Below, piece by piece: positions 1-676 of a stretch of DNA of 676 bases. Location of the stretch: NCBI RefSeq assembly GCF_003334405.1, contig NZ_QOWM01000058.1; one strand, written 5' to 3'. Source of the stretch: Escherichia coli (GTDB taxonomy: Bacteria; Pseudomonadota; Gammaproteobacteria; Enterobacterales; Enterobacteriaceae). How positions within the stretch are numbered: position 1 is the stretch's first letter; every line of letters begins with the position of its first letter. A program made the position numbers and the translations under genes. The notes beneath the pieces were generated by a model. The model saw only the letters and a list, made by a program, of their open reading frames with translations. It searched no databases and was not told the DNA's origin.

Positions 1-676
1 GTAAGTCACTGTGTGGATTATCATAACGGTAGCGGGTGATATCGCCGTCAGGGGCAGTTTCCTGAATCAGACGGCCCAATTCATCATATTCCCGGCGCAA
101 TTCCAGCCCGTCAGGCCCGGTGGCTGACGTTAACTGGTTGTGGTGGTTATAGTAAAACGCCGATGCCCTGCCATCCGGCGTGGTTATGCGCGTGATGAGG
201 CCCGTCACCACATCCGGGCTGTACTCTGTTGTCCTGCCTGCGGCATCCGTCTGTGCCCTGAGCCTGCCCACGGCGTCAAACTGACTCTGCGTGACGCTGC
301 CGTCCGCGTGTTCCTTTTTCACCACCCGCTTCAGCCCGGCTTCGCCCTGCGTGTGCAGCACTTCACGGCGGTCCAGGCTGTCGGTGATGGTGATGCGGTC
401 TTTCTCATACTGATACGTGTAGCTTAAGCCTGCCGGGTTTAGCTGTTCTGTCACCCGCCCGTCGCTGTCGTAACGGTAACGGATTTCCGGCCGGCCCGTG
501 TGACGGTGCGCCACCATCCGGCCCCGGTATTTATCATCGTAAGTAAAGCTGCGCACCTGTTTGCCACTACGGTCATACACCACCGCCAGTTCGCCGCGTG
601 GCGTCCAGCCATAGCGCACCAGCGGCGCGGCAGGTAAATTCTCCGGGTATTCCGGGTCGTGCGTCAGCCACACGGC
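1..676 (-). CDS. Rhs-family YD-repeat core protein (polymorphic toxin scaffold), internal fragment, partial at both ends
   Basis: Hand translation of the reverse complement, with codons ending at plus position 676 (base 1 is a partial codon), gives 225 residues and no stop: AVWLTHDPEYPENLPAAPLVRYGWTPRGELAVVYDRSGKQVRSFTYDDKYRGRMVAHRHTGRPEIRYRYDSDGRVTEQLNPAGLSYTYQYEKDRITITDSLDRREVLHTQGEAGLKRVVKKEHADGSVTQSQFDAVGRLRAQTDAAGRTTEYSPDVVTGLITRITTPDGRASAFYYNHHNQLTSATGPDGLELRREYDELGRLIQETAPDGDITRYRYDNPHSDL. It contains repeated YD-repeat signatures (YxYD followed by G/R-rich turns), which I recognise from memory as E. coli-type Rhs core (rhsA/B/C/D-like); I cannot tell which paralog from this fragment, so no symbol is given. 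Third-codon positions are strongly G/C-biased in this frame (about 20 of the first 25 codons), supporting the frame. Window GC is about 60% by hand count. No start or stop codon lies in the window. Confidence 0.93.

Follow-up and report, generated by a model that had tools for sequence, protein, structure and literature searches.

The window analysed here (a stretch of DNA of 676 nt) carries on its minus strand a piece of an rhs gene, and the question that it raises is which part of such a gene it represents and whether, as supposed in a preliminary description of the stretch, a variable toxin tip and its immunity gene lie beyond its left edge. In Rhs systems the motif PxxxxDPxGL marks off the variable Rhs-CT toxins, which together with RhsI constitute specific toxin/immunity pairs (PMC3150448); the tips are exchanged by ‘C-terminal displacement’, which leaves orphan cassettes downstream (PMC2935791); and the repeats build a closed beta-barrel inside which the toxin is enclosed, with an aspartyl-protease plug (carrying a DPLGL-type motif) that autocleaves and so frees it (PMC8636562). 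We hold with high confidence that the 676 nt come from the interior of a full-length clade-I Escherichia coli rhs gene (rhsA/rhsB/rhsC type) lying on the minus strand.

The window within the YD-repeat core

Frame 0 of the minus strand was found to be free of stops across all 675 translatable bases of the window (225 codons), and the remaining five frames contain many stops. In the 225-aa translation, Pfam recovered five RHS_repeat matches with E <= 0.001 (best 8.4e-08), and the tandem YD (RHS) repeats by which an Rhs core is recognised are therefore present. At the nucleotide level, the window is an exact match to nt 877-1552 of 4.1-4.2 kb rhs genes (i.e. K-12 rhsA, K-12 rhsB and the rhsC of strain M217), a span that comprises codons 293-517 together with the first base of codon 518, in genes whose intact proteins measure 1377-1411 aa. 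The translation also matched the solved shells of related proteins, namely that of Tse5 from P. aeruginosa (8cp6, E 2.6e-38) and those deposited as 7q97 and 7pq5 (about 1e-22). Judged from these matches, positions 2..676 of the minus strand are predicted to encode YD/RHS repeats of a beta-shell, and the window would form part of the shell of an Rhs polymorphic toxin. The preliminary description had taken the stretch for the earlier part of the core of a minus-strand gene with its C-terminus toward lower coordinates, and both points are borne out by the position of the codons within the protein and by the open frame, which leaves the window through its left edge.

The leftmost positions (1-60) had been flagged with the expectation that a variable tip and its immunity gene would be situated beyond them. 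Window positions 2-61 (minus strand) encode ETAPDGDITRYRYDNPHSDL, which corresponds to RhsA residues 498-517 and is an ordinary YD repeat (Table 1). Scans for promoters and terminators, Rfam families and repeats detected neither a motif nor a junction at positions 1-60, and no RNA family, terminator or repeat of note either; a special feature at this place was rejected on that basis. What had been flagged there holds as regards the coding part inside the window; a tip or an immunity gene is not encoded within the window, and this half of the flag concerns sequence outside it. Over the full 676 nt, the scans returned no Rfam family and no terminator, a single weak promoter-like match (plus strand, 124-153), one two-copy direct repeat of 19 nt and one inverted repeat of 15 nt, both repeats being compatible with chance. 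The longest plus-strand ORF (95 aa) was likewise rejected as a gene, since it runs antisense to the strongly supported rhs CDS; in every genome examined its span falls wholly within the annotated rhs CDS, with no gene annotated there on the opposite strand, and an ORF of this length is to be expected opposite a G+C-rich coding frame, for which reason we judged it spurious.

Table 1. Features of the window (coordinates in window positions) and of the rhs loci that carry an identical window (residues of the full proteins; distances from the left edge of the window)
Feature	Position	Strand or orientation	Length	Family, basis or remark
Ordinary YD repeat	1..60	minus		Translation; Pfam RHS_repeat match spanning residues 197-219 of the fragment; codon 518 starts at position 1
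Internal fragment of rhs core ORF (rhsA/rhsB/rhsC type), codons 293-517	2..676	minus		Open frame, RHS_repeat, exact match
Longest plus-strand ORF, judged spurious	140..427	plus	95 aa	Mechanical ORF listing
Motif PVTNTDPLGL, RhsA	residues 1238-1247			
Motif PISDIDPLGL, RhsB	residues 1238-1247			
Motif PISNIDPLGL, RhsC	residues 1238-1247			
Motif PVINVDPQGL, among the rhs loci with identical window	residues 1238-1247			
RhsA tip	last base of stop 2,582 nt beyond the edge		130 aa	Pfam Ntox34, E 6.5e-44
RhsB tip	last base of stop 2,684 nt beyond the edge		164 aa	DUF4329, E 4.6e-40
RhsC tip	last base of stop 2,642 nt beyond the edge		150 aa	No Pfam family
yibA	20-nt gap after rhsA	co-oriented	280 aa	HEAT repeats
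yhhH	29-nt overlap with rhsB	co-oriented	127 aa	NTF2-fold immunity family PF15631, E 9.6e-25
ybfB	1-nt overlap with rhsC	co-oriented	108 aa	No family

Core end, tips and small downstream ORFs

Our statements on the tip rest on other public genomes carrying DNA identical to the window, from which (and from other matching genomes) eleven loci were fetched as a qualitative sample of the tips found beside matching windows. When the sequence is followed leftward in the seven fetched loci whose rhs ORF reaches a tip (L001, L002, L003, L005 and L008-L010, each with an identical window), the frame stays open as far as residues 1238-1247, where the PxxxxDPxGL motif is found, and then continues into a tip, as the preliminary description had proposed for such an extension. 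The motif ends 2,189 nt past window position 1, which places the junction well outside the window, again in keeping with what had been claimed. Three full proteins with an identical window scored 2644-2659 bits over residues 1-1247 against the NCBIfam RHS_core model NF041261 (curated cut-off 2000 bits), and the RHS-associated core domain TIGR03696 was detected at residues 1170-1247 (E about 1e-23), ending in PxxxxDPxGL.

The variable tip that succeeds the motif measures 130-164 aa, with its stop 2,582-2,684 nt beyond the left edge and the small ORF behind it taking up another 0.3-0.9 kb, and the tips of the paralogues are unrelated (about 27% ungapped nucleotide identity to each other, which is roughly chance). 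Behind each of the three canonical tips comes a small ORF in the same orientation (Table 1), and orphan rhs C-terminal fragments are found farther downstream, each accompanied by a small ORF of its own (e.g. yibG, ybfC and an Imm57 pseudogene). In a Pfam scan of the joined FORC 064 tip, YhhH, YbfB, YibG and YibA (in which only per-domain matches were used), YbfB and YibG gave no match to any immunity family. The three canonical modules are common: of 5,426 complete E. coli genomes, 1,757 contain rhsA-tip/yibA at a coverage of 80% or more, 2,684 rhsB-tip/yhhH and 2,536 rhsC-tip/ybfB. The last of these modules, with its cysteine-rich RhsC tip and hydrophobic YbfB (L003 10866-11644), matches no Pfam or NCBIfam family, yet it is among those covered to this extent in 2,536 of the 5,426 genomes.

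These layouts support, from the sequence of neighbouring DNA in related genomes, the earlier view that a tip and an immunity gene would be situated beyond the left edge: tips of the lengths given above and small co-oriented ORFs (yibA, yhhH, ybfB, yibG) were indeed found left of the core. The rhs ORF would usually run about 2.2 kb leftward to the core domain, to be succeeded by the tip, a small ORF and orphan tip/immunity cassettes. By analogy with related Rhs proteins described in the literature, the repeats may fold into a closed beta-shell around the tip, an aspartyl-protease plug may cut at the DPxGL motif and so free the tip, and the downstream protein would bind and neutralise its cognate tip. 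According to Hill-lab work, as it is cited in PMC3150448, growth inhibition by the RhsA C-terminus (a block of stationary-phase recovery) is neutralised by yibA. The preliminary description had named this junction as the place of any new toxin/immunity pair; the pairs encountered there are already known.

Within its whole length, the window shows no difference from K-12 RhsA and RhsB (clade I, rhsABCF subfamily), with both of which it is base-for-base the same at nt 877-1552, and the core family, motif position, tip and downstream ORF (YibA and YhhH, respectively) are as in the RefSeq annotation. Neither the window nor its likely surroundings depart from published descriptions, and the Rhs polymorphic-toxin architecture encountered here is the classical one, already known and described since 1990-2011. 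It was with these genes that the Rhs family was founded. The outcome confirms, for the bacterial genome that has been studied best, an architecture found in textbooks and matters little.

Among the Rhs effectors that are delivered by type VI secretion systems (T6SS) and have solved structures, Tse5, Rhs1/Tre23 of P. laumondii and RhsA of P. protegens enclose their toxin and possess, at the C-terminus, an aspartyl-protease plug whose motif is of the DPLGL type (PMC8636562). From these effectors the E. coli proteins of clade I differ in that they carry an N-terminal DUF6531 and lack PAAR: a Pfam scan of RhsA residues 1-1200 yielded DUF6531, RHS repeats and RHS only, with no PAAR. Moreover, no vgrG or T6SS genes stand beside the K-12 rhs loci (whose upstream neighbours are yibF, nikR and ybfA), nor does an Eag chaperone. 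The features of the T6SS-dependent (PAAR/VgrG-loaded) subclass are thus missing from the clade-I E. coli proteins, and delivery by a T6SS is unsupported for RhsA-type proteins because no PAAR was found and no vgrG is adjacent. K-12 is not known to have a T6SS. Outside the Rhs family, the CdiA-CT/CdiI systems are built in a like manner (a conserved delivery region, a demarcation motif, a variable tip, an immunity gene and orphan cassettes; PMC3150448), with VENN as the demarcation motif in CdiA as against PxxxxDPxGL in Rhs (PMC3150448). The delivery proteins themselves are unrelated, that of CdiA being a haemagglutinin-repeat filament of two-partner secretion and that of Rhs a YD-repeat shell.

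Paralogues that share the window

The window was compared by megablast with 5,426 complete E. coli genomes and was matched in 3885 of them, at a median of 3 places per genome, in features annotated as rhsA, rhsB, rhsC or ‘RHS element core protein’. In 972 records the best place reached an identity of 99% or more, and 100% was reached in at least 39 records. In K-12 the three places correspond to three full-length genes, of which rhsA and rhsB match exactly and rhsC has 24 mismatches within the window; the rhsC alleles of M217 and of other strains are identical to it. As exact copies exist in rhsA, in rhsB and in alleles of rhsC, an assignment of the window to one locus was rejected.

These occurrences also bear on the possibility that the window stems from an rhs remnant (truncated or rearranged) and has neither tip nor immunity gene to its left. 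Such remnants have their precedents, since rhs cores are hot spots of rearrangement in which breakpoints within the core do occur: in strain 11899A_LBHALD (see below) 130 nt are duplicated in the region of the window, and the broken core is annotated as a pseudogene, and in the record H90 only query nt 1-386 are covered, under a partial RHS annotation. Against this, a place covering at least 80% of the window was found in 3877 of the 3886 matching records, the window has no interruption and shares 100% identity with intact genes, and its places in K-12 are full-length genes. Furthermore, the orphan fragments of K-12 span only 219-1521 nt and therefore cannot extend back to core nt 877-1552. 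We consider an origin from a remnant extremely unlikely, and an internal piece of a full-length gene remains the reading that we follow.

The sharing of the window by several loci reflects the state of the core as a whole, the cores of the paralogues being 97-99% identical. K-12 rhsA and rhsB agree at every base of a 1,811-nt stretch, from gene nt 82 to nt 1892. The first site leftward of the window at which these two genes part (core nt 1893) is 341 nt past the left edge, nt 81 is 796 nt past the right edge, and the 5' flank specific to each locus (yibF, nikR or ybfA) is about 0.9-1.1 kb to the right. Since the core is shared and homogenised among the paralogues, the window alone cannot tell which tip/immunity pair stands to its left and, lying as it does in this repeated stretch, it is unusable for predicting the variable cassette attached to it.

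A comparison of K-12 rhsA (L005 7193-11326) with K-12 rhsB (L002 7125-11360) revealed 42 differences in the core, all but five of which fall within the 640 nt that directly precede the tip. This pattern fits a central core that would have been homogenised, with divergence rising toward the displaced tip.

The rhsC of strain M217 (L003 7125-11318) was typed at the 113 sites where K-12 rhsA (L005 7193-11326) and K-12 rhsC (L006 7584-11777) differ, and was found to be rhsC-type over nt 18-724 and 2400-3738 and rhsA/B-type over nt 954-2337. The M217 allele thus has an rhsA/B-type patch in its core, and it is identical to the window, whereas K-12's own rhsC differs from it at the 24 positions already mentioned. 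Read from its site pattern, the mosaic is consistent with an inter-paralogue gene-conversion tract of roughly 1.4-1.7 kb between different loci. In the literature, exchange of cores between paralogues has been judged ‘infrequent (if any)’ (PMC2935791).

Loci that depart from the canonical layout

Three of the eleven fetched loci deviate from the canonical layout: FORC 064 (L010), ECCHD184 (L011) and 11899A_LBHALD (L004). In FORC 064, the core at the rhsA locus (L010 5127-9827) is fused to a 162-aa tip that has no Pfam family and is directly followed by yibG; neither the RhsA tip nor yibA is present. It looks as though a deletion had, in nature, loaded an orphan tip onto the main gene, and the tip, judged by its position alone, looks like the orphan cassette that lies upstream of yibG in K-12. 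The rhs CDS of FORC 064 is annotated as frameshifted, as are several neighbouring genes, which may be a matter of assembly quality. In ECCHD184 (L011 9200-10310), an IS5-like element (ISKpn26) cuts the Ntox34 tip of RhsA after ...CGDI and no immunity gene is present; all of the DNA between and including yibA and yibH has gone, and yibI is reduced to a fragment before mtlA. In 11899A_LBHALD (L004 8001-11262), the region equivalent to the window contains a tandem duplication of 130 nt (query nt 282-411 repeated), and the core breaks near gene nt 2700, where it is joined to a second copy of an rhs 5' end; this second piece ends abruptly beside pdeA, and both parts are annotated as pseudogenes. 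The arrangement could be a true rearrangement or a misassembly. The outcomes that the preliminary description had named as telling against it (an ORF without a variable extension, or a truncated core remnant) were thus encountered in a minority of the sampled loci, as the IS-truncated tip of ECCHD184 and the truncated core of 11899A_LBHALD.

Two of these loci illustrate a further alternative, in which the window would belong to a gene with a displaced or damaged tip (through an orphan tip brought in by deletion, or through the cut of an insertion sequence) and the pair to its left would be non-canonical. FORC 064 and ECCHD184 provide an instance of each kind, and the best matches of the tip modules include apparent IS1 insertions between tip and immunity gene. 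On the other hand, canonical pairs are present at most of the fetched loci whose window is identical, and the canonical modules are covered to at least 80% in the large numbers of genomes given above, so that we regard a displaced or damaged tip as very improbable. It is likewise improbable, if by a little less, that the source genome harbors an uncharacterised tip/immunity pair to the left of the window, e.g. one with a newly displaced tip or with a tip of the RhsC or FORC 064 type, the latter two types being without a Pfam family.

In the best-scoring records for the rhsA-tip/yibA and rhsB-tip/yhhH modules (H91-H96), the match is in two pieces and an IS1A transposase is annotated under it, together with the tip and the gene for immunity. 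As several strains from different sources are concerned, this suggests that IS1 insertions in the rhsA and rhsB modules are recurrent or inherited.
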